This document shows, piece after piece, positions 2,483 to 22,646 of a stretch of 42,002 nt of DNA; the first letter of the stretch is position 1; each line of letters begins with the position of its first letter. The translations under genes and the position numbers were made by a program. The notes beneath the pieces are model-generated. The model searched no databases and was not told the DNA's origin. It worked only from the letters and a program-made list of their open reading frames with translations. The DNA comes from a virus (taxonomy: Duplodnaviria; Heunggongvirae; Uroviricota; Caudoviricetes): the IMG/VR virus record IMGVR_UViG_2563366918_000005. The stretch is one strand, 5' to 3'.

Positions 2483-3108
2483 ACCGCCAGCACCTTACTG
2501 GCAGTGATGTACCGCGCTCTCCGGTCGTCGATGCCGTTCCTGCCACCATTGATAATCAAAGTTACACGTGCAATATCGCCGGTATACTTCATGCAACCTT
2601 TGCTGGAGAAGAACCACGCCGCGCTACGAGCCGCATATTCGTCCTGCGCTAACAGTTCAGGATTCTCCAGCAGGTCCACTTTCAGGCCGTTTCCGCAGTC
2701 ACGATAGTTATTCAAACCGGTAATCTGGATAAGTCCACGGCCTCGGTAATTCCAGCCGTCACCAGGGGAATTGTTCCCCATGCGTTTGCTGTACACCAGA
2801 TTGGCGATCGCTCGCTGGCGCTCGAGTGGCAATGGTGGTTCACCAGCACGGCGACCCAGTGCATTAGCCTGCCCCTGAGTGAGACGCCCAGCCCGAACGA
2901 AGTTAGCCAGACCGCTGACACTGTAGTTGAAATTCTCCTGCAATCTGGTGAAGCCCACAGATTCATGCCCGACCTGAGCAATAAACATTGCCAGATCTTC
3001 TGGTTTGCTGATACCAAACTCTTTCATCGCAGAAGTTATATGCGAGAACCAGCGTGCGGCCAGCGCCTCGCTAATACCAGCAGCTCGCTGGAATTGTTTA
3101 ATCTCCAT
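2479..3108 (-). CDS. Endolysin, glycoside hydrolase family 19 (chitinase-like lysozyme)
   Basis: [21 protein letters not shown]...QVGHESVGF...[13 protein letters not shown] is GH19 phage-endolysin-like. Start chosen at the internal Met (3108) rather than the ORF-track 3339, because the region upstream of 3108 is occupied by the holin-like gene. Confidence 0.75.
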
Positions 3109-3406
3109 GTTTAGACCTCGATATTTTGAAAATCTGAACAACGTTACCGCGTGTTTTAATAACCGCGGCAAGCATGACAGCGTTGATAATGACCTCAGAT
3201 AAATCCACAGCCATTGGCGTGCGTAACCAGATTGCATAGACGACACGAACAGGAATACTGGCCGCAGCAACAATAAGGAAATAAGCAAGCCACCCTCCCC
3301 ATCTTCGATGTTGAGAGCCGTTACGCCGGAATGTGACAACGCGAATTGCTATGCCAGTACAAATAACTGCATTGGTGATAAGCAAAAAAAACTCATGCGT
3401 TACCAT
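3098..3406 (-). CDS. Holin/antiholin-like small membrane protein
   Basis: 102 aa with ~3 hydrophobic helices. End overlaps the endolysin start. Confidence 0.45.
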
Positions 3407-3809
3407 CGTCTTTTCTCCCCGGAATTAAATCGCGTGGATTGTCTGAACGGTGGTAGAGCCATATACCAATACGCACAGCGACAATTGCTGACACGAATGC
3501 GCCAGCAGAGAAAACAATACCTTTTTCAAAAGAGTCCTGCGTGATGGTAGGGATCAGGCTGGCTATGCCGATAAGAATTGATGCTGCTGGTTTGTAGAAA
3601 AGAAGTCCGCAGAGAAAGCTGAGCATCGACAAGAGTACGCGACGACGAATTGGATACTCTACCGCAGAGGTAACAAAAATTACCGCGCCAGCAAGAGCAC
3701 CGAGCGCCACCTCTGGCGGAACGCCTACGATAACCGCAGCAAGAGAGCTCACACTAAGCCATTGATTTAAAGACTCAGTTGTTATGTTAACCGACATAGC
3801 ACACACCAT
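3393..3809 (-). CDS. Holin-like membrane protein (start at 3809 or 3797)
   Basis: 3-4 TM segments (LAAVIVGVPPEVALGALAGAVIFV, LLSMLSFLCGLLFY, ILIGIASLIPTI, VFSAGAFVSAIVAVRIGIWLY). First gene of the lysis cassette. Confidence 0.45.
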   Translation of the reverse strand: MVCAMSVNITTESLNQWLSVSSLAAVIVGVPPEVALGALAGAVIFVTSAVEYPIRRRVLLSMLSFLCGLLFYKPAASILIGIASLIPTITQDSFEKGIVFSAGAFVSAIVAVRIGIWLYHRSDNPRDLIPGRKDDGNA

Positions 3810-3972: not shown

Positions 3973-6579
3973 TTATTTCCTGCAAACTCCAGATGATGTT
4001 AATCCATCAAAAATAACCTGCACTCTGGCAATAACAACATCAACTCCAGAAGTCGTTTCACTTGCATAACCAAGTTTTATTTTAGATACAATATCCTGAG
4101 TAAGTTCAGATATTTCAGTTTCTGCAATGTTACCAGAGGCCATGTGATTATCGTATGCCATAGAATGAATTCCATTATTGACATCGATTGAACTAGTATG
4201 TTTGTGAAAAATAGATGGGTTTACCTGAAACGAATTTGAACCGATAAGATCAGAATATACTCCATTCATCACTGCAGTACAGCGTGGAATATTATTATCG
4301 GTTATTGTCATATGCAGACGGTTACCAGTTAACCCCTCACCAAGTGTGACATAATACGCCAATTCTCCACCTGCATATTGTTTCCCCTCAACAATAACAG
4401 TAATCCCTCTTAATTTCTGATTAGCTAGCAAAAACTTATTACTGTCTATATAGCATTTATTTGCGGAACCAAAAACAGCCCCTTCTAAAATATCTGATGA
4501 ATAGGAATAAATAAGGTCACCTGAAACAAAGGAAAGAATATCAGATACGTTTCCTTTTTTAGATAAGTTAGGAGAATAGCTATTAACTATTTCATATTGT
4601 CCTGTGATAAAATCAAGGTAAACGCCATCAGTTTTCATCTCTTTAAAGAAAATGCTATTAAAGCATCCATCAAGAACCGGTGGATATATTCTAGAGCTTG
4701 CATAAGCTGTTGGGTGATTCTTATTATTACCACTACCAGGCGAATAAACATCTTCGTTAGTCATTGACTTTTTAAGCTTAACAGGAATCATCGGCTGCAT
4801 ATCAATTTTGCAGTTCCCTGAACCACCGATGCGAGGATAAAATAAACCACCAAACCTTACAATATTACTACTGAATAGTATTTCGTTATCGTTAAGTGTT
4901 ATCTCAACGAAGTTTCCAATAAGTTTAAATTCAACTGAAAACAAACCAAGTGGAGCAGATAATTTAACAATATTGCGCATAAAAACACCTACAGTCCCTG
5001 TTGATGCAGTATAGTGTGTGGTTTCAAAGGCAGAGCCTGTATATTTCAAGTTAATGAAATTATTATGGTATGAAGACAATTGAAATTGAATCCCAGAACT
5101 AAGGATTTCAATATCTACAAATTGAATCCTTACGGAGTAAGCATATGATAAATCTTCATATTCATAAGGCAATGTAACATCTTTTGAAATAGTTGCCCTC
5201 ACATAATTACCAGAAACCACATCAATCCCATCACGTACAGCATTAAAGTAACGATTAAAATCAATAAGCCCAGCGCCAACATACTGCGCATATGACCGAG
5301 TCCATCCTGCCATTGCGTTTCGTCCATTCTGAGCTTCTAAACTGCTAAATTCAGAGTCACTTGTGGTACTTGATGGGAGGATATTTGTACAAAAAATAAT
5401 TTCAGGCATTGAAGTAATATCATTCAGTTCAGCCATCAATTTAAAAAAAGTTTTCTGCGGGAAGTTACCAACATCCCAACCATCTCCGTCATTCATGCCA
5501 AAAGCAATAATAACAACATCAGGGTTAATATCACGAATGTAATCAATCCAGCGTCTGTTCGTGTCTGAATACCATGGGTACTGTGAGTTATAAGAAGTAA
5601 TTGCTGGTGTATCTTTTCCAAGGTCATAGTACCTCATTCCACCAATTGCTCTGTTAAATAAAGTAGAACTTGGGAATTTCTCTTGCAAAACTCTCTTAAG
5701 ATGAGCGGCAAAAATGCTTGATCGATCCACTGTGCTTATATTATATGGGGCACTTAAGCTGTCACCAACTAACACTATTTTTGAGTTAGGCCTTGATAAT
5801 CTCTCAAGTGTTTTAGATGTGACTAAACTGCAGGAATTAATGAACTGAGTACTATTTAGCATCTGTTCAAGTGTATCACCAAATCTGGTACCAACGTATG
5901 ATGATCCGTTGACACTTGCTAGCTTAAGGCATAAATCAGCAGTATCTGTAATTGAAAAAATAGGAACAGGACGTCCTAAACTGTCATACCCCTGAATTGA
6001 GTTTGCCCTAGAAGATGCTGATGCCATTTCGCTTACTATCTCAGGGAAGCGGAGTGTTTTAGATATGTTGCTGTTAATAACTCCTTTGATAGATGAGTCT
6101 GTATATTTCTTCGTGGAAGCGTCCTGAGGAAATAATGGATCATCAAGGTTACGAATACGATTGCCGAGTGCATCGTAGTAAGTGGCACTAAATGATGGTT
6201 TACGAAGAGCCAGCCGAGCCATGCTTTTGACTAACTGGATCAGCATCGTTAGCTTATCAAAAGCATCCTCATGCACTTCCGCAAAGAACTTACCCTGATT
6301 GCGCAGATCAGTTTCCTGTGTAACCGGTAGCTCTCGTGATATAGAAATCTTATAGCCATTGGCCAACGCCTTCGACAATATTACATTTCCACCATTGTAT
6401 CCTCCGGCCCCGGTAACTATATAATCAGTATCAAGAGTCAGTACGGTGATATTTTCATGAATATCAACAACCTGCACAATCAAATCAGATTTATTGAAAA
6501 CCCTAAAGGCATACGGAAACGATGTCGTAACGCCGTTACCGGTGTATTCGTTGTGGTCAACTTCGGTTGAGACCGTCAT
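3973..6579 (-). CDS. Tailspike: epsilon15-type N-terminal particle-binding domain, divergent central part with SGNH/GDSL esterase motifs, AT-rich C-terminal domain
   Basis: N-terminus MTVSTEVDHNEYTGNGVTTSFPYAFRVF matches the epsilon15 gp20 tailspike N-terminus from memory. Internal VLVGDSLS (GDS block) and FGMNDGD (GxND block) are typical of SGNH hydrolases. GC content drops markedly after the first ~350 nt. Confidence 0.7.
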   Translation of the reverse strand: MTVSTEVDHNEYTGNGVTTSFPYAFRVFNKSDLIVQVVDIHENITVLTLDTDYIVTGAGGYNGGNVILSKALANGYKISISRELPVTQETDLRNQGKFFAEVHEDAFDKLTMLIQLVKSMARLALRKPSFSATYYDALGNRIRNLDDPLFPQDASTKKYTDSSIKGVINSNISKTLRFPEIVSEMASASSRANSIQGYDSLGRPVPIFSITDTADLCLKLASVNGSSYVGTRFGDTLEQMLNSTQFINSCSLVTSKTLERLSRPNSKIVLVGDSLSAPYNISTVDRSSIFAAHLKRVLQEKFPSSTLFNRAIGGMRYYDLGKDTPAITSYNSQYPWYSDTNRRWIDYIRDINPDVVIIAFGMNDGDGWDVGNFPQKTFFKLMAELNDITSMPEIIFCTNILPSSTTSDSEFSSLEAQNGRNAMAGWTRSYAQYVGAGLIDFNRYFNAVRDGIDVVSGNYVRATISKDVTLPYEYEDLSYAYSVRIQFVDIEILSSGIQFQLSSYHNNFINLKYTGSAFETTHYTASTGTVGVFMRNIVKLSAPLGLFSVEFKLIGNFVEITLNDNEILFSSNIVRFGGLFYPRIGGSGNCKIDMQPMIPVKLKKSMTNEDVYSPGSGNNKNHPTAYASSRIYPPVLDGCFNSIFFKEMKTDGVYLDFITGQYEIVNSYSPNLSKKGNVSDILSFVSGDLIYSYSSDILEGAVFGSANKCYIDSNKFLLANQKLRGITVIVEGKQYAGGELAYYVTLGEGLTGNRLHMTITDNNIPRCTAVMNGVYSDLIGSNSFQVNPSIFHKHTSSIDVNNGIHSMAYDNHMASGNIAETEISELTQDIVSKIKLGYASETTSGVDVVIARVQVIFDGLTSSGVCRK

Positions 6580-6683: not shown

Positions 6684-6698
6684 TTACCTTTATGGTAA
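6684..6698. promoter_or_regulatory. Dispersed palindrome copy 1: TTACCTTTATGGTAA (perfect arms; extended ATTACC..GGTAAT)
   Basis: Divergent region between tailspike and the LexA-controlled genes. Confidence 0.6.
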
Positions 6699-6735: not shown

Positions 6736-6755
6736 TACTGTATAAATATACAGTT
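6736..6755. promoter_or_regulatory. LexA (SOS) box TACTGTATAAATATACAGTT overlapping the promoter of the 85-aa gene
   Basis: CTGT-N8-ACAG with an AT-rich centre, near-identical to the TACTGTATATATATACAGTA consensus. Sits 20-40 nt upstream of SD GGAG (6763) and ATG (6775). A TTGATA -35-like hexamer is at 6732. Confidence 0.75.
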
Positions 6756-6774: not shown

Positions 6775-7032
6775 ATGCAGCGGTATCACTATCCACTGGA
6801 AGACGGATTTACCGAAAGGATTCACACGCCGGGAGGCGTCAGGTCACTGGTGGAGGGATCGCACTTGATGAAATTACTCCGGGATCTCGATAAGGATGGA
6901 TTTAATGTCGATGGCCCACTTGCCGAACTGACTGCACTGATTAACTACGTCACCAGCTCACAGATGTCTATGCGGGATCTGCAAACACATCTCGACTATT
7001 GTGCCGAACAATTACGAAAACAAACCAGATAA
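6775..7032 (+). CDS. Small protein (85 aa) paralogous to the C-terminal domain of the downstream Bro-N/antirepressor-like protein
   Basis: SD GGAG 8 nt upstream. IHTPGGVRSLVEGSHLMKLLRDLDKDGFNVDGPLAELTALINYV..RDLQTHLDY aligns with IHSPSGVLGLTENSLLMNLLNQLQEDGHDVSGAAAELTTMFCYI..RDIQTHAEY of 7347..8039. Confidence 0.6.
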   Translation: MQRYHYPLEDGFTERIHTPGGVRSLVEGSHLMKLLRDLDKDGFNVDGPLAELTALINYVTSSQMSMRDLQTHLDYCAEQLRKQTR

Positions 7033-7063
7033 GGTTTGCAATTACCAAGTGGAGTGCTTATAT

Positions 7064-7078
7064 TTACCTTTGAGGTAA
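7064..7078. promoter_or_regulatory. Dispersed palindrome copy 2: TTACCTTTGAGGTAA, nested in a larger inverted repeat GGAGTGC(7051-7057)/GCACTCC(7088-7094)
   Basis: Perfect arms. Confidence 0.6.
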
Positions 7079-7106
7079 ATTTACATCGCACTCCTCTTGT
7101 GCCATA

Positions 7107-7192
7107 GTAATCGGGCACTGGCAAAATCCAGTGCCGGGATTGGTCTCCCGGATTACTACAGAGGCACATATGCCGCATAAGCGGTTTTTTTT
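7107..7192 (+). terminator. Multi-hairpin structured element ending in a T-tract (attenuator/terminator between the 85-aa gene and the ant-like gene)
   Basis: Outer stem gtaatc(7107-12)/gattac(7151-56). Inner 8-bp hairpin ggcactgg-caaaat-ccagtgcc (7114-7135). Small hairpin ggga..tccc. Then ccgc-ataa-gcgg plus T8 (7172-7192). Confidence 0.45.
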
Positions 7193-7346
7193 ATGTGTAA
7201 AGCGCACCTATTCTATGGTGGGCTGTGTGGGGGCACCGAAAGGTGCGCCGGGTTCCTTTGTAGCCGGTAAGACCAACTCTGCACAGTTCACCACCATCTG
7301 ATTGGTCTCAGCGGTGGTGATTAACCTAACTACAAAGGTGATCGCC

Positions 7347-8039
7347 ATGAATACCAAACCTTCCATCTTTTCCTTTGAGTCATCCTGCCAGATCCGTATG
7401 TTCATGATTGACGGAGAACCTTGGTTTGTCACCAAAGATGTGTGCAATGCTTTGAATATTGATGTTACACAAGCGAGAAAACTTGATAAAAAAGGCTGGA
7501 ACAAAAAGGGGCTGTATTCAATACAGACCCCTGGTGGAATACAAGAACTATCCATCGTTTCAGAATCAGGTCTCTACATCCTTATTCTGCGTTGCAAAGA
7601 GGCAATGACTGAGGGAACGAGAGCATTCAGATTTCTTGAATGGGTTACAGGCGAGGTTCTTCCTCAGATCCGCCGCACCGGAAGTTACATTAAAAACTCG
7701 CTACCGCAGGAAGAACGCATAAAGATGGTTGCCGACCAGGTAGCCAACGCCACGGCGTCAGCAGTAATGCAGGCGATGAAGATAGAGAACAAAACCTACA
7801 ACGCCCCGCTGAAGCCCGGCTACCGCAGCCTGATTCATTCCCCGTCTGGTGTTCTCGGCCTGACGGAGAACTCACTGCTGATGAATCTGCTGAACCAGTT
7901 ACAGGAAGACGGGCACGACGTATCGGGCGCGGCGGCGGAGCTGACCACCATGTTCTGCTACATCGTCGGTGTGAGCAAATGCCTGCGTGATATCCAGACG
8001 CACGCGGAGTACATCAACGACAAAGCAGGGTTCTTCTGA
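7347..8039 (+). CDS. Bro-N domain antirepressor-like protein (Ant/KilA-N family)
   Basis: SD aaggtga upstream. N-terminus FSFESSCQIRMFMIDGEPWFVTKDVCNALNI is the Bro-N/AntA signature. Its position next to the tailspike mirrors P22 immI (ant). Confidence 0.65.
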   Translation: MNTKPSIFSFESSCQIRMFMIDGEPWFVTKDVCNALNIDVTQARKLDKKGWNKKGLYSIQTPGGIQELSIVSESGLYILILRCKEAMTEGTRAFRFLEWVTGEVLPQIRRTGSYIKNSLPQEERIKMVADQVANATASAVMQAMKIENKTYNAPLKPGYRSLIHSPSGVLGLTENSLLMNLLNQLQEDGHDVSGAAAELTTMFCYIVGVSKCLRDIQTHAEYINDKAGFF

Positions 8040-8104
8040 CGGGCGGCGGCACAGGGATGTGCCTTTAAATAATTCTGTACAGATTGCAGGTGAATAGCTT
8101 ACTA

Positions 8105-8119
8105 TTACCTCACGGGTGA
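8105..8119. promoter_or_regulatory. Dispersed palindrome copy 3: TTACCTCACGGGTGA (1 mismatch)
   Basis: Between ant-like gene and the 179-aa gene. Confidence 0.45.
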
Positions 8120-8156
8120 TCCATAGCGATTAGGCACCGATACAGGAGGAGCCCAC

Positions 8157-8189
8157 ATGAGAAAATTTGACGAGTACGAAGGCGTTTAA
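8157..8189 (+). other. 10-codon upstream ORF (MRKFDEYEGV) with strong SD AGGAGG
   Basis: aggagg at 8145-8150, ATG 8157, stop 8187-8189. Lies ~20 nt before an intrinsic terminator. Confidence 0.3.
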
Positions 8190-8208
8190 CATTCGGATAG
8201 TTTAATGA

Positions 8209-8231
8209 CGGGGCCATTAGGCCCCGTTTTC
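8209..8231 (+). terminator. Strong intrinsic terminator/attenuator 18 nt upstream of the 179-aa gene SD
   Basis: cggggcc-atta-ggccccg 7-bp GC stem followed by tttt. Confidence 0.65.
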
Positions 8232-8248: not shown

Positions 8249-8788
8249 GTGTTAAGTGAAGAAATGCAATTTGCCATGGCTGTGGCTCAAATCGTAAGTG
8301 CAGTCGCGGTTTCGCTTGGCTTGTTCATAGCTATCGCTACTATTATTTATAATGTAAATACAGCGAGAAAAGTACACACTTCAGTATTCCTTGGTGAAAG
8401 CAGGTTTGATGTAGATTATAAGAAAGGCCTATCTACTATGCGCCGCATTCACGAATCGAACAAATCATTCCGCTCTTATATGTATCCAAGCAATGGGCAG
8501 GCTGATCTTACGGATGAAGAAAAGACAGAGAAGAGAGAAATAATTTACTGTCTAGGTTTCTACGAACGCATGGCTGTGAGCGTGAAGCGGAAAACTTATG
8601 ATGAGACCATGATTAAGGAAGTATTTTACAGCTCCGTTGTAAATAACTATCAGATTGCGCTACCTCTTATACAAGCCATTAGAGAAAAAGAAAACATAAA
8701 CACATATTTTAAAGAATATGAATGGTTGGCCACACGATGGAAGGATTGCCCATTGAAGGATAAATCCCCGTGGTACAAGTTTTGGTAA
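8249..8788 (+). CDS. AT-rich single-pass membrane protein (N-terminal TM, cytoplasmic domain); moron, candidate superinfection-exclusion/abortive-infection factor
   Basis: GTG start with SD ggaga 7 nt upstream (alternative ATG at 8264). TM FAMAVAQIVSAVAVSLGLFIAIATIIY. Markedly lower GC than its neighbours. Sits in a sieA-like position of a P22 immI-like block. Confidence 0.55.
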   Translation: MLSEEMQFAMAVAQIVSAVAVSLGLFIAIATIIYNVNTARKVHTSVFLGESRFDVDYKKGLSTMRRIHESNKSFRSYMYPSNGQADLTDEEKTEKREIIYCLGFYERMAVSVKRKTYDETMIKEVFYSSVVNNYQIALPLIQAIREKENINTYFKEYEWLATRWKDCPLKDKSPWYKFW

Positions 8789-9067: not shown

Positions 9068-9079
9068 GTGACATGTCAC
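9068..9079. repeat. Perfect 12-bp palindrome GTGACATGTCAC (copy at the distal end of the ejection-protein operon)
   Basis: Identical to 30044..30055. Sits beside the terminator hairpin. Confidence 0.5.
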
Positions 9080-9372
9080 GTCCCTTTTCTGAATGATAGC
9101 CATTCGAAAAATGATGACATTCCACCGCAGACAACAGCAAAGATGATCCCACCAAAGAAGAGAATGCCAGCCTGCCACCACTCCCACCGCCATACATCCA
9201 CAGCGCCAACCATACCAACAATCGCTCCAACAAATGGAATATAGCTCACGATGAAAGCAATGGGGGCTGCAATTATCCAGTGCAATCCCCACCATGATTC
9301 AAGCCCAGCCATAATTGCTGCCAACTGAAAAAGACCAACGACGATATAAACAATGAATCCTATAGCTTGCAT
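9076..9372 (-). CDS. Small integral membrane protein (3 TM), last gene of the ejection-protein operon
   Basis: 98 aa, highly hydrophobic with Trp-rich loops. SD aggtga 3 nt before the ATG. Confidence 0.5.
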   Translation of the reverse strand: MQAIGFIVYIVVGLFQLAAIMAGLESWWGLHWIIAAPIAFIVSYIPFVGAIVGMVGAVDVWRWEWWQAGILFFGGIIFAVVCGGMSSFFEWLSFRKGT

Positions 9373-21164: not shown

Positions 21165-21602
21165 TTAACCAGTTACTTTTGAGCGGATCGGGTACGGTGT
21201 ATTGGCATCAACATCCAGACTGATACCCGCAGTGAATTTGCCGGCCGTTAGTGGGCCAGTTGCGACGGAGTAGTTAACACGCAGATATCGCTGAACACCG
21301 GCAGGCACCTTTGCAGAAACAACTCGTTTACCTGCTTTCAGGGTAGCCTTTGCCAGTTCGCCACTATCATAAATAGTGGACCATGAGCTGTTATTCTCAC
21401 TCGTCTGCAACTGGATGTTTACAGTTGCCTCACCACTTGCCGTGGCGGCTTCGTTAACCAGCGCCCAAAACTCAAGCGGGTAACCCACGCCGATATCGCG
21501 ACGATTTCCATCAATTGGACCGAGATCGATTACGTCAGTAGAAGCCGCGGTATTCGTAACCGCCTGAGCTTCGGAGAACATCAACAGTTTGTCGGTGATC
21601 AT
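21165..21602 (-). CDS. Probable capsid decoration/accessory protein (145 aa)
   Basis: Immediately downstream of the major capsid gene. Beta-rich composition. Confidence 0.35.
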   Translation of the reverse strand: MITDKLLMFSEAQAVTNTAASTDVIDLGPIDGNRRDIGVGYPLEFWALVNEAATASGEATVNIQLQTSENNSSWSTIYDSGELAKATLKAGKRVVSAKVPAGVQRYLRVNYSVATGPLTAGKFTAGISLDVDANTPYPIRSKVTG

Positions 21603-21653
21603 CTTCTTTCTCCATTAGTGGGTCTGTTACGACCAACAGGTTAATAACAGGCG

Positions 21654-22646
21654 TTACACCACGCGGGCTTCTGTTTCCAGAAGCGCATCAGTTTCACGGA
21701 TTGGTACACCACGGAATGAAGTCCACCACTCGCCTTCAGTCTCTTTTACGCTGATAGCCAGAGATGTTTTCTCCAGAGACTGCAGATCAAGAGCCTGGCC
21801 TACAGTGCGGTTCATGTAGAACACCGGGCGGCCCATGCCACGGTTTGGAATGCGATGCAGTGCTTTAACCATCAACTTCGCAATATTTGCGGCAGAGGAA
21901 GGTTCTGAAAGATTGCTGACATCGATGTTTGCAATGCGAACAACATAACGCCAGTCACGCAGAGCAAGTCCGTTGTCCCATTTGTAATGGGTACGGTAGC
22001 CTTCGTACTTGCCGCCATTAACATCTTTCAGTGTCACCTGGCCTTTATCTTCCATCTGGATGCCAGCCTTCTGCCCTTTCGGGAAGATGCCATGCACGGT
22101 GTTTTCGCCCCACACCACTAACCAGATTGAGGTGTTATCTGTACCCGTGCCACCAGCATCAATGATGTTCTGAGCATTACCCGCAGACAGGCTGGAATAG
22201 CGGGAGGACAGTCCCATAAACTGCTGAGGGTTAACGCTGGAATCACCATAAAACAACGTCTGCGCCATCTGCTGATTCATCGCTTCAATAAATGCGCGGT
22301 CTTCAGACAGGCGGAATTCGGCGGTATTACCGTTCAGATCAGCCAGTGACTTATCGACTTCAGCATAGGTTTCCAGCATTCCAACGGAATCGGTGACCTG
22401 CACTGTGGTTGATTTGCTTGGCTGTACGCCATAGTTCAGCAAACGCCAGGTGGCCGAAGGTAAACCAGAACGAATGGTGGTTCGGTGTCCGGTAGGAAGG
22501 TTCCCTTCGACAAAAGGCATATCCTGAAGGATCGGGTTAGTTTGACCGAGAAGCTCGATAATCTTATCGACTTTCCCGTTTGGATCGACGCGCTTACCCC
22601 AGTCAGCCAGCGTTAGCGCAGTTAAGCCTTTAACAGACATTGTCAT
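21654..22646 (-). CDS. Major capsid protein (HK97-fold), 330 aa
   Basis: Size and position between scaffold and decoration genes. The epsilon15 major capsid protein is ~335 aa. Confidence 0.6.
   Translation of the reverse strand: MTMSVKGLTALTLADWGKRVDPNGKVDKIIELLGQTNPILQDMPFVEGNLPTGHRTTIRSGLPSATWRLLNYGVQPSKSTTVQVTDSVGMLETYAEVDKSLADLNGNTAEFRLSEDRAFIEAMNQQMAQTLFYGDSSVNPQQFMGLSSRYSSLSAGNAQNIIDAGGTGTDNTSIWLVVWGENTVHGIFPKGQKAGIQMEDKGQVTLKDVNGGKYEGYRTHYKWDNGLALRDWRYVVRIANIDVSNLSEPSSAANIAKLMVKALHRIPNRGMGRPVFYMNRTVGQALDLQSLEKTSLAISVKETEGEWWTSFRGVPIRETDALLETEARVV

Follow-up and report, generated by a model that had tools for sequence, protein, structure and literature searches.

Two separately regulated genes with paralogous antirepressor domains in an epsilon15/phiV10-type prophage of Escherichia coli

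Introduction

Two neighboring genes in the 42,002-nucleotide viral sequence IMGVR_UViG_2563366918_000005 (the whole of which is called the window below) raise the question of how a phage comes to encode the same kind of domain twice, once on its own and once at the end of a longer protein. The window is an Escherichia coli prophage of the epsilon15/phiV10 type (Uetakevirus), and the two genes, located between positions 6775 and 8039, encode proteins of 85 and 230 amino acids (aa). A preliminary description, made from the sequence alone, regarded the 85-aa, LexA-controlled protein as a free-standing paralog of the C-terminal domain of the Ant-like 230-aa protein, and suggested that it could be either a minimal, Tum-like antirepressor or a dominant-negative or titrating partner that tunes the activity of the longer protein. 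On the basis of the present analysis we consider it fairly probable that the genes encode two separately wired antirepressors that act on one prophage repressor, Rep, one being triggered by the SOS response and the other gated by an antisense RNA. Our own results comprise the homologies, the LexA box, the RNA elements with their covariation, and the finding that the domain and Rep co-occur, while the binding of Rep by the Ant protein of phage SPC32H and the drop in lysogeny caused by the ortholog from phage ZX5 are the results of others.

Many of the phage proteins called Ant have an N-terminus of the Bro-N, AntA, Rha, ORF6N, or P22_AR_N type and an uncharacterized C-terminus, and their choice of repressor is mostly unknown. 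Bro-N antirepressors under RNA control are known in P1, Gifsy-1, and APSE, and the presence of two antirepressors in one prophage is known in Gifsy-1. The small protein of the present locus and its mechanism are also already known. What appears to be new is that a modular, RNA-gated antirepressor bears, as its specificity domain, an old paralog of the SOS-gated Ant, the structure of which is solved, and that at least five N-terminal modules have been combined with this paralog by recombination. This provides a concrete and testable model, in which the C-terminal ~80 residues would give the specificity and the N-terminal module would be generic. It also links two literatures on the epsilon15-like antirepressor, in which different genes bear that name, the small Ant in the work on Salmonella and the Bro-N protein in the work on E. 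coli.

Results and Discussion

The Shared Domain

The two genes and the domains of the longer product are located as follows.

6775..7032, plus strand: small ant gene (S-type, stand-alone antirepressor), ATG start, 85 aa, ortholog of SPC32H Ant
7347..8039, plus strand: Bro-N::Ant-like (F-type) antirepressor gene, ATG start, 230 aa
7392..7664, plus strand: Bro-N domain, aa 16-106 (Pfam PF02498, 51.5 bits against a cut-off of 25.6)
7791..8021, plus strand: Ant-like domain, aa 149-225, paralog of the small Ant (BLASTP, E = 8e-17; phmmer with 5D50_E, E = 4.9e-14)

In BLASTP, residues 2-75 of the 85-aa product pair with residues 149-222 of the 230-aa product in an ungapped alignment, 32 of the 74 positions being identical (43%, E = 8e-17). 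The Smith-Waterman score of the pair is 167, to be compared with 26.2 +/- 4.3 and a maximum of 61 for 2000 shuffles (z = 32.5), and this check against shuffled sequences confirms that the 85-aa protein is homologous to the C-terminal domain of the 230-aa protein and represents a free-standing form of it. At the DNA level, the codon-aligned identity of the two copies is 48%, with 28% at the third positions, and blastn between the two Ant-domain copies finds nothing. The GC content is 48% in the small gene, 57% in the fused Ant-like domain, and 45% in the Bro-N part.

The age of the duplication was judged from nine phages of E. coli, Enterobacter, Klebsiella, and Salmonella, in which the S and F copies fall into two clean clades. 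The S copies are 58-100% identical to one another and the F copies 52-100%, while S and F copies are 34-41% identical in every lineage, so the S/F split is older than the divergence of these phage lineages. There is no sign of gene conversion between S and F copies in the nine phages compared. Judged from these sequences, the duplication is old and diverged; the recent duplication that had been suggested is contradicted by the 34-41% identity found between the clades in every host lineage and by the randomized third codon positions.

The domain shuffling that had been named along with duplication is, on the other hand, borne out by the architectures, since the same C-terminal domain is found joined to five N-terminal domains. 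These are Bro-N (the window), AntA (phiv142-3 and P0270), P22_AR_N (the third, opposite-strand copy of TL-2011b), Phage_pRha, and ORF6N. The family is narrow, as exhaustive profile searching across 1.84 billion representative proteins gives only 64 clusters at E <= 1e-3. In the listed hits the match stops no more than a few residues before the C-terminus, both in the stand-alone forms (~82-98 aa) and in the longer proteins. Word-indexed searching returned stand-alone forms only, among the best 120 matches, when the small protein was the query, and 29 proteins when the C-terminal part was used; the architectures needed the exhaustive profile search. The third Ant-domain protein of TL-2011b (7277-8221 of locus L004, minus strand) is 314 aa long, and its C-terminal domain shares 95-96% identity with the F-type copies found in the E. 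coli phages. With the small Ant as query, tblastn matches HEMP4 at three places.

Among E. coli phages with 98.5-100% identical Reps, the F domain keeps an identity of 95-100%, be it preceded by Bro-N, AntA, or P22_AR_N. In the phage collection, moreover, an Ant domain is present in 35 records, namely all but one of the 36 that have a full-length Rep. The near-identity of the F domain across the N-terminal swaps, combined with the co-occurrence with Rep, provides good, though indirect, grounds for regarding the C-terminal domain as a probable Rep-specific module and the N-terminal domain as generic.

The same observations bear on another possible role of the shared domain, which is that it serves mainly for tetramerization and that the Bro-N protein is a DNA-binding or host-directed regulator and no antirepressor of Rep. 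Such a role would fit with SPC32H Ant being a tetramer, with the hydrophobic character of many of the residues that are invariant between both clades, and with the unsettled function of the Bro-N domain. However, the almost perfect co-occurrence with Rep in the phage collection and the near-identity of the domain while its N-terminal partner is swapped among five antirepressor-typical families both argue against it. In addition, control by C4 and IsrK RNAs, described below for the fused gene, is a hallmark of antirepressor genes, and the ZX5 ortholog lowers lysogeny. A role limited to tetramerization is thus considered clearly unlikely, and the shared domain is discussed in the following as a candidate Rep-specificity module.

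The Small Antirepressor Gene

The 85-aa product matches chain E of PDB 5D50 ("Anti-repressor protein") over residues 2-84 (phmmer, E = 3.5e-46) and is 87% identical to the product of SPC32H ant (SPC32H_020) by tblastn. The SPC32H gene has the same length and the same genome position, between the tailspike and injection genes, as 6775..7032. SPC32H Ant reportedly forms a tetramer, binds to Rep, and breaks up the Rep tetramers, the structure of the complex having been solved (PDB 5D50); the Ant-Rep antirepression of SPC32H is said to be the subject of Kim & Ryu 2013 and Kim et al. 2016 (PDB 5D50, 5D4Z). According to the statement in PMC7380047 that cites Kim & Ryu 2013, Ant is produced upon LexA cleavage and the repressor is inactivated through protein-protein contact.

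By homology, the 85-aa protein is a minimal antirepressor, the ortholog of SPC32H Ant, and as such it is already known. The first half of the "minimal antirepressor, Tum-like" proposal is hence upheld by the SPC32H ortholog (E = 3.5e-46) and by the Rep homolog present in the window, while the second half survives as a likeness of function and regulation and fails as homology. Tum of phage 186 is, like the small Ant, a small, LexA-controlled protein that binds the repressor. It is annotated as DinI-like, and homology to it was rejected, as the hhalign probability of Tum with the Ant-domain alignment is 0.4% (E = 0.15) and BLASTP gives E = 0.04 in an unrelated stretch.

Both proteins match PHROG 450, with E-values of 1.2e-47 for the 85-aa protein and 3.1e-37 for the fused Ant-like domain; this family is labeled "unknown function". 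No Pfam or NCBIfam model spans the SPC32H-Ant domain (6775-7032 and 7791-8021 checked), which explains the label "hypothetical protein" given to the small gene in the listed RefSeq genomes of E. coli, although the structure is solved. The present assignment is thus useful for annotation.

The regulatory element that precedes the gene is the following.

6738..6753, plus strand: LexA (SOS) box CTGTATAAATATACAG, perfect CTGT-N8-ACAG, 22-37 nt 5' of the ATG at 6775

Six relatives, SPC32H included, have a perfect LexA box that begins 37 nt 5' of the ant ATG, as in the window, and the one Klebsiella relative checked has a box with one mismatch. The LexA control ascribed earlier to the 85-aa gene agrees with this upstream box. 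The scan of the window shows no LexA box 5' of the 230-aa gene; the whole 42 kb contains two perfect CTGT-N8-ACAG boxes, the other being CTGTTACGACCAACAG at 21624-21639. The latter is located between the minus-strand open reading frames (ORFs) 21165..21602 and 21654..22646 in a long minus-strand block and may be a chance occurrence, because at least two boxes are present in 12 of 100 shuffles.

The Salmonella relatives examined carry the small Ant alone. The same holds for E. coli phage PAS61, whose Rep is identical to that of the window, and for Enterobacter phage BUCT554, whose Rep is 75% identical. The distribution in Salmonella bears on the dominant-negative or titrating role, for which no positive support was found: in these relatives the small gene stands alone and is the described antirepressor. 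A more general form of the idea would be that one paralog titrates or poisons the other, for example in mixed tetramers, and so tunes the induction threshold. Both proteins hold the domain that tetramerizes in SPC32H, and phage 186 offers a precedent in its nested truncated Tum products, annotated as modulating SOS induction. At the 186 tum gene (3083-3523 of locus L018), four nested in-frame products are annotated, the shorter ones as "modulating SOS induction". However, the two clades are only 34-41% identical, making co-assembly uncertain, and both genes of the window are independently regulated. Together with the solitary small gene of the Salmonella relatives, this makes titration scarcely probable as an explanation of the pair, and we return to the reading of two separately acting antirepressors.

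The Fused Bro-N::Ant-like Gene

The 230-aa protein is 78-80% identical to its orthologs ZX5 ORF4 and phiV10 p23 (80% to ZX5 ORF4), which are annotated as "anti-repressor" and "putative anti-immunity protein", respectively, in phages whose Rep is identical to that of the window. The phiV10 counterparts of the gene pair are p24 and p23, and the records of ZX5 and phiV10 list the small gene only as a hypothetical protein. Overexpression of ZX5 ORF4 lowered the lysogens from 1e9 to 1e6 plaque-forming units (PFU)/mL, i.e., ~1000-fold, and decreased the transcription of the repressor by 75% (PMC9782041). The ZX5 paper (PMC9782041) contains 0 mentions of LexA and 0 of SPC32H, and no paper stating that the small Ant and the Bro-N protein share a domain was found in the literature searched. 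From the homology described above we infer that the fused Ant-like domain would bind Rep.

The phiV10 ortholog of the fused gene (4746-5425 of locus L001) has a frameshift within the Ant-like domain, resulting in p23 (194 aa) and p22 (29 aa). The Ant-like domain of phiV10 may be inactive, or the phiV10 sequence may hold an error.

An AlphaFold2 model of the 230-aa protein, calculated with a 23-sequence alignment, has a mean predicted local distance difference test (pLDDT) value of 65, the Bro-N part being of moderate quality. For this part, Foldseek against the PDB gives weak matches (E > 0.01) with folds of the KilA-N/APSES and Ski-DHD type.

The IsrK/C4 RNA Cassette

The 314-bp spacer between the ant genes holds a complete IsrK/C4 antisense-RNA cassette (7102-7346) by comparison with Rfam. 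Its elements are listed below.

7080..7108, plus strand: cassette promoter from the promoter scan, TTTACA, 17 nt, (TG)CATAGT; the predicted start at ~7115 is the IsrK 5' end
7102-7154: match to the c4-a1b1 model (Rfam, 39.9 bits, under the gathering score of 46.7)
7115..7191, plus strand: IsrK-like leader RNA (Rfam isrK, 74.7 bits against a gathering score of 50)
7140-7146, plus strand: C4 target a1, TTGGTCT, perfect 7-mer complement of a'
7156-7164, plus strand: C4 target b1, CTACAGAGG, one G-U wobble
7172-7185, plus strand: stem of the IsrK intrinsic terminator, followed by a T run (terminator scan)
7211..7298, plus strand: C4-type antisense RNA (Rfam RF01695, 78.6 bits against 45, model positions 1-87)
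7255-7263, plus strand: C4 b' loop, CCTTTGTAG (RNA CCUUUGUAG)
7270-7276, plus strand: C4 a' segment, AGACCAA, pairing with UUGGUCU at 7302-7308 and 7140-7146
7302-7308, plus strand: C4 target a2, TTGGTCT, perfect 7-mer
7330-7338, plus strand: C4 target b2, CTACAAAGG (RNA CUACAAAGG), perfect 9-mer complement of b', overlapping the Shine-Dalgarno sequence of the ATG at 7347

The C4 RNA has a predicted fold energy of -43.6 kcal/mol, and the ATG of the fused gene is located 45-49 nt past the end of C4, an offset that is kept in the relatives. The two RNAs lie directly 5' of the fused ant in 8 of the 8 relatives that have the fused gene, in each case above the Rfam thresholds, and both are absent from SPC32H, which is without the fused gene. 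The TTTACA/CATAGT hexamers of the promoter are conserved in nine loci, the spacer between them being variable.

The C4 loops and their targets co-vary across the nine loci, with three a-types and four b-types (C4/target).

a-types: AGACCAA/UUGGUCU; ACGCCAA/UUGGCGU; GUCUCAA/UUGAGAC
b-types: CCUUUGUAG/CUACAAAGG; CCUUUUAG/CUAAAAGG; CCACUUAG/CUAAGUGG; CCGUUUAG/CUAAACGG

By these pairing sequences, E. coli phages with one common Rep differ in C4 type; phiV10, for example, has CCUUUUAG and ACGCCAA, and phiv142-3 has CCACUUAG and AGACCAA. This predicts heteroimmunity by C4 RNA type among them, similar to that of P1 and P7.

Because the IsrK/C4 cassette lies between both genes, the two paralogs would be regulated separately. 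The terminator scan finds no terminator from the stop codon of the small ant (7032) to the IsrK terminator, and since the two units are not separated by one, SOS transcripts should bring a1/b1 decoys. The IsrK terminator of the cassette is leaky. A conserved leader ORF of the icd or orf45 kind was looked for and rejected: the candidate at 7170..7301 (43 aa), which overlaps C4, shifts frame in some relatives and is absent in three.

Rep and the Recurrent Palindrome

The presumed common target of the two proteins and the palindromes at the two ant promoters are the following.

35849..36433, plus strand: Rep, the prophage repressor (phmmer with 5D50_A, E = 4e-42, full length)
6684..6698, no strand: palindrome TTACCTTTATGGTAA, directly 5' of the TTGCAA -35-like hexamer of the small ant
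7064..7078, no strand: palindrome TTACCTTTGAGGTAA, abutting the -35 hexamer of the isrK promoter

phiV10, ZX5, and phiv142-3 have repressors 100% identical to the Rep of the window, and SPC32H Rep is ~43% identical to it. Between E. coli and Salmonella phages, the N-terminal domain of Rep is 53% and the C-terminal domain 38% identical.

The motif TTACC-N5-GGTAA occurs 15 times in the window with at most one mismatch, against 0.73 expected, and 0 of 100 shuffles reach 15. The copies, most of which are seemingly intergenic, begin at 6684, 7064, 8105, 25637, 26254, 29933, 29951, 33410, 33472, 35394, 35731, 35779, 36491, 36553, and 3659. In four lineages, copies of the motif are concentrated between rep and the cro-like gene; the motif is found upstream of the isrK cassette in most relatives examined, and in SPC32H it is at the same place upstream of ant (3410-3424 of locus L003). 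It is retained by SPC32H and by the Klebsiella and Enterobacter relatives, in spite of an identity of only 43-47% between their Reps and that of the window. TTACC-N5-GGTAA is probably the operator of Rep and/or Cro. With the palindrome as a Rep operator, Rep would repress both of its own antagonists, resulting in positive feedback. A similar feedback arrangement exists in P1 immI, where C1 acts at Op51.

The divergence of Rep raises the possibility that the two antirepressors divide their targets, the F-type being cognate to the resident E. coli-type Rep and the small Ant having a broad range, with cross-talk on other Uetakevirus Reps, or the reverse. The identity of the F-type (77% for Tyrion, 52% for Klebsiella) indeed parallels that of Rep (78% and 44%), while E. 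coli and Salmonella phages share 84-87% identity in the small Ant but 43% in Rep. Cross-talk of antirepressors in trans is, furthermore, known for the Gifsy and Fels prophages (PMC3121763). However, PAS61, with its identical Rep, and BUCT554, with its 75% identical Rep, carry the small Ant only, and the three or four independent lineages make the correlation anecdotal and confounded with host phylogeny. A division of targets is therefore considered rather unlikely as compared to the sharing of one Rep. The Reps themselves form two types, one of E. coli and Enterobacter and one of Salmonella and Klebsiella phages, and this grouping disagrees with the Ant tree. The mismatch points to mosaic exchange or to a putatively broad-range Ant.

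Proposed Mechanism

In the mechanism that we favor, with two antirepressors acting on one Rep, LexA would occupy the box at 6738-6753, and its removal upon DNA damage would allow Ant to be made. By analogy with SPC32H Ant, the Ant tetramer would bind Rep, split the Rep tetramer into dimers, and free the operators, and the prophage would then be induced. The 230-aa protein would be modular, consisting of an exchangeable Bro-N domain and the old Ant paralog that gives Rep specificity. Its gene would be transcribed from its own promoter (7080-7108) and would be kept translationally silent by the C4 RNA, which would be processed from the gene's own leader and pair with the ribosome-binding site (b2, 7330-7338). 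The fused gene would thus act once C4 is missing or titrated. Such a situation might arise on (super)infection of a cell without the matching C4 type (anti-immunity, as in P1/P7), or when the IsrK-like RNA rises, including by read-through from the SOS-induced ant promoter. Rep, through TTACC-N5-GGTAA at both ant promoters, would repress both antagonists, which is the feedback described above. The timing of expression of the fused gene and the feedback through the palindromes at both promoters are inferred parts of this scheme.

Several points weigh against this mechanism. The small Ant does not follow the divergence of Rep, which makes a cognate Ant-Rep pairing doubtful as far as the sequences tell. 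The conserved residues of the fused domain could serve oligomerization only. The assay of ZX5 ORF4 was made with an overexpression construct tagged with glutathione S-transferase (GST), and binding is outside its scope (PMC9782041). The C-terminal domain is poor in the AlphaFold2 model (pLDDT 42-74) and Foldseek against the PDB misses 5D50, so that the model is uninformative on the Ant domain. Finally, the details of the RNA control may differ from those in P1 and Gifsy-1, because the leader ORF (icd, orf45) is not conserved here.

We have also considered a mechanism in which the S and F Ant domains form mixed tetramers, the Bro-N fusion altering the SOS-made Ant in its stoichiometry, DNA tethering, or specificity for Rep. 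DNA damage and the state of the C4/IsrK RNAs would then act together in setting the induction threshold, in place of two independent switches. We regard this as highly unlikely.

Comparison with Known Systems

The Ant-Rep system of SPC32H is similar to that of the window in having the Ant ortholog (87%), the same offset of the LexA box, a Rep homolog, and an upstream TTACC-N5-GGTAA. It differs in that there is no second Ant-domain gene and no IsrK/C4 cassette, and in that the Reps are ~43% identical.

The RNA control is analogous to that of P1/P7 immI, for which Citron & Schuster 1990, as cited in a statement of bioRxiv 10.1101/2020.03.17.996009, is the source that C4 blocks translation upstream of ant. 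As in the window, C4 is located in the antirepressor leader, with a1/b1 upstream and a2/b2 over the ribosome-binding site, and the C4 specificity types differ among phages with one repressor, as they do in the group of the window. Unlike P1, however, the window has no conserved icd-like ORF, its protein is a fusion of Bro-N with the SPC32H-Ant domain, and its repressor is Rep instead of the C1 of P1.

A similar arrangement of elements is seen in the isrK-orf45-anrP region of Gifsy-1, where IsrK in trans turns on the translation of AnrP and AnrP induces the prophage (PMC4825925). There, too, an antirepressor gene lies downstream of an IsrK-like RNA with a leaky terminator and then a C4-like RNA, STnc1160 (PMC4825925), and a separate small LexA-controlled antirepressor, GfoA, is present (PMC3121763). 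Unlike in Gifsy-1, coupling through an orf45-like ORF is not conserved in the window, and the two Gifsy-1 antirepressors are not detectable paralogs, whereas those of the window are. BLASTP between AnrP and the protein of the window gives nothing under E = 3. The idea that Gifsy-1 also pairs paralogous antirepressors was rejected, AnrP having no detectable similarity to any small Gifsy-1 ORF tested.

Prophage Setting and Neighboring Genes

The window region is 100% identical to the prophage adjoining yfgI in E. coli WP8-S17-ESBL-12. Matches to it are found in 542 of 5426 complete E. coli genomes, 140 of them over >=80% of the length, and the podoviruses phiV10, ZX5, TL-2011b, and EC.W1-9 of the epsilon15/phiV10 group (Uetakevirus) are 91-98% identical to it. 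Both ant genes are flanked by the tailspike gene (3973..6579, minus strand) and by large virion genes (from 9568, minus strand).

Stand-alone F-type proteins of 95-97 aa were considered as further free-standing forms of the domain. The Klebsiella case examined is a truncated remnant, in which the homology to the fusion extends 5' of the called start and stops at the AlpA gene, and it was rejected as a sign that the F-type domain can function by itself. This remnant (loci L011-L013, 3923-4288) is the "95-aa antirepressor" of many Klebsiella genomes; it comes from a Bro-N::Ant fusion, abuts an AlpA-like gene, and precedes a TTACC-N5-GGTAA palindrome and a HicBA pair, with a tRNA gene nearby. The locus looks like a decayed prophage or a satellite-like islet.

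Known defense families were rejected for both ant products and for the neighboring DUF4760 protein. PADLOC gives no match for either Ant-domain protein, for the DUF4760 protein, or for the small ORF at 9076-9369 (one small ORF tested), and NCBIfam gives none for either Ant-domain protein or for the DUF4760 protein. The DUF4760 protein (8249-8788, 179 aa) belongs to a variable cargo region downstream of the fused ant. Small ORFs are called on either strand between 8800 and 9560, and the relatives vary in their content downstream of the fused ant.

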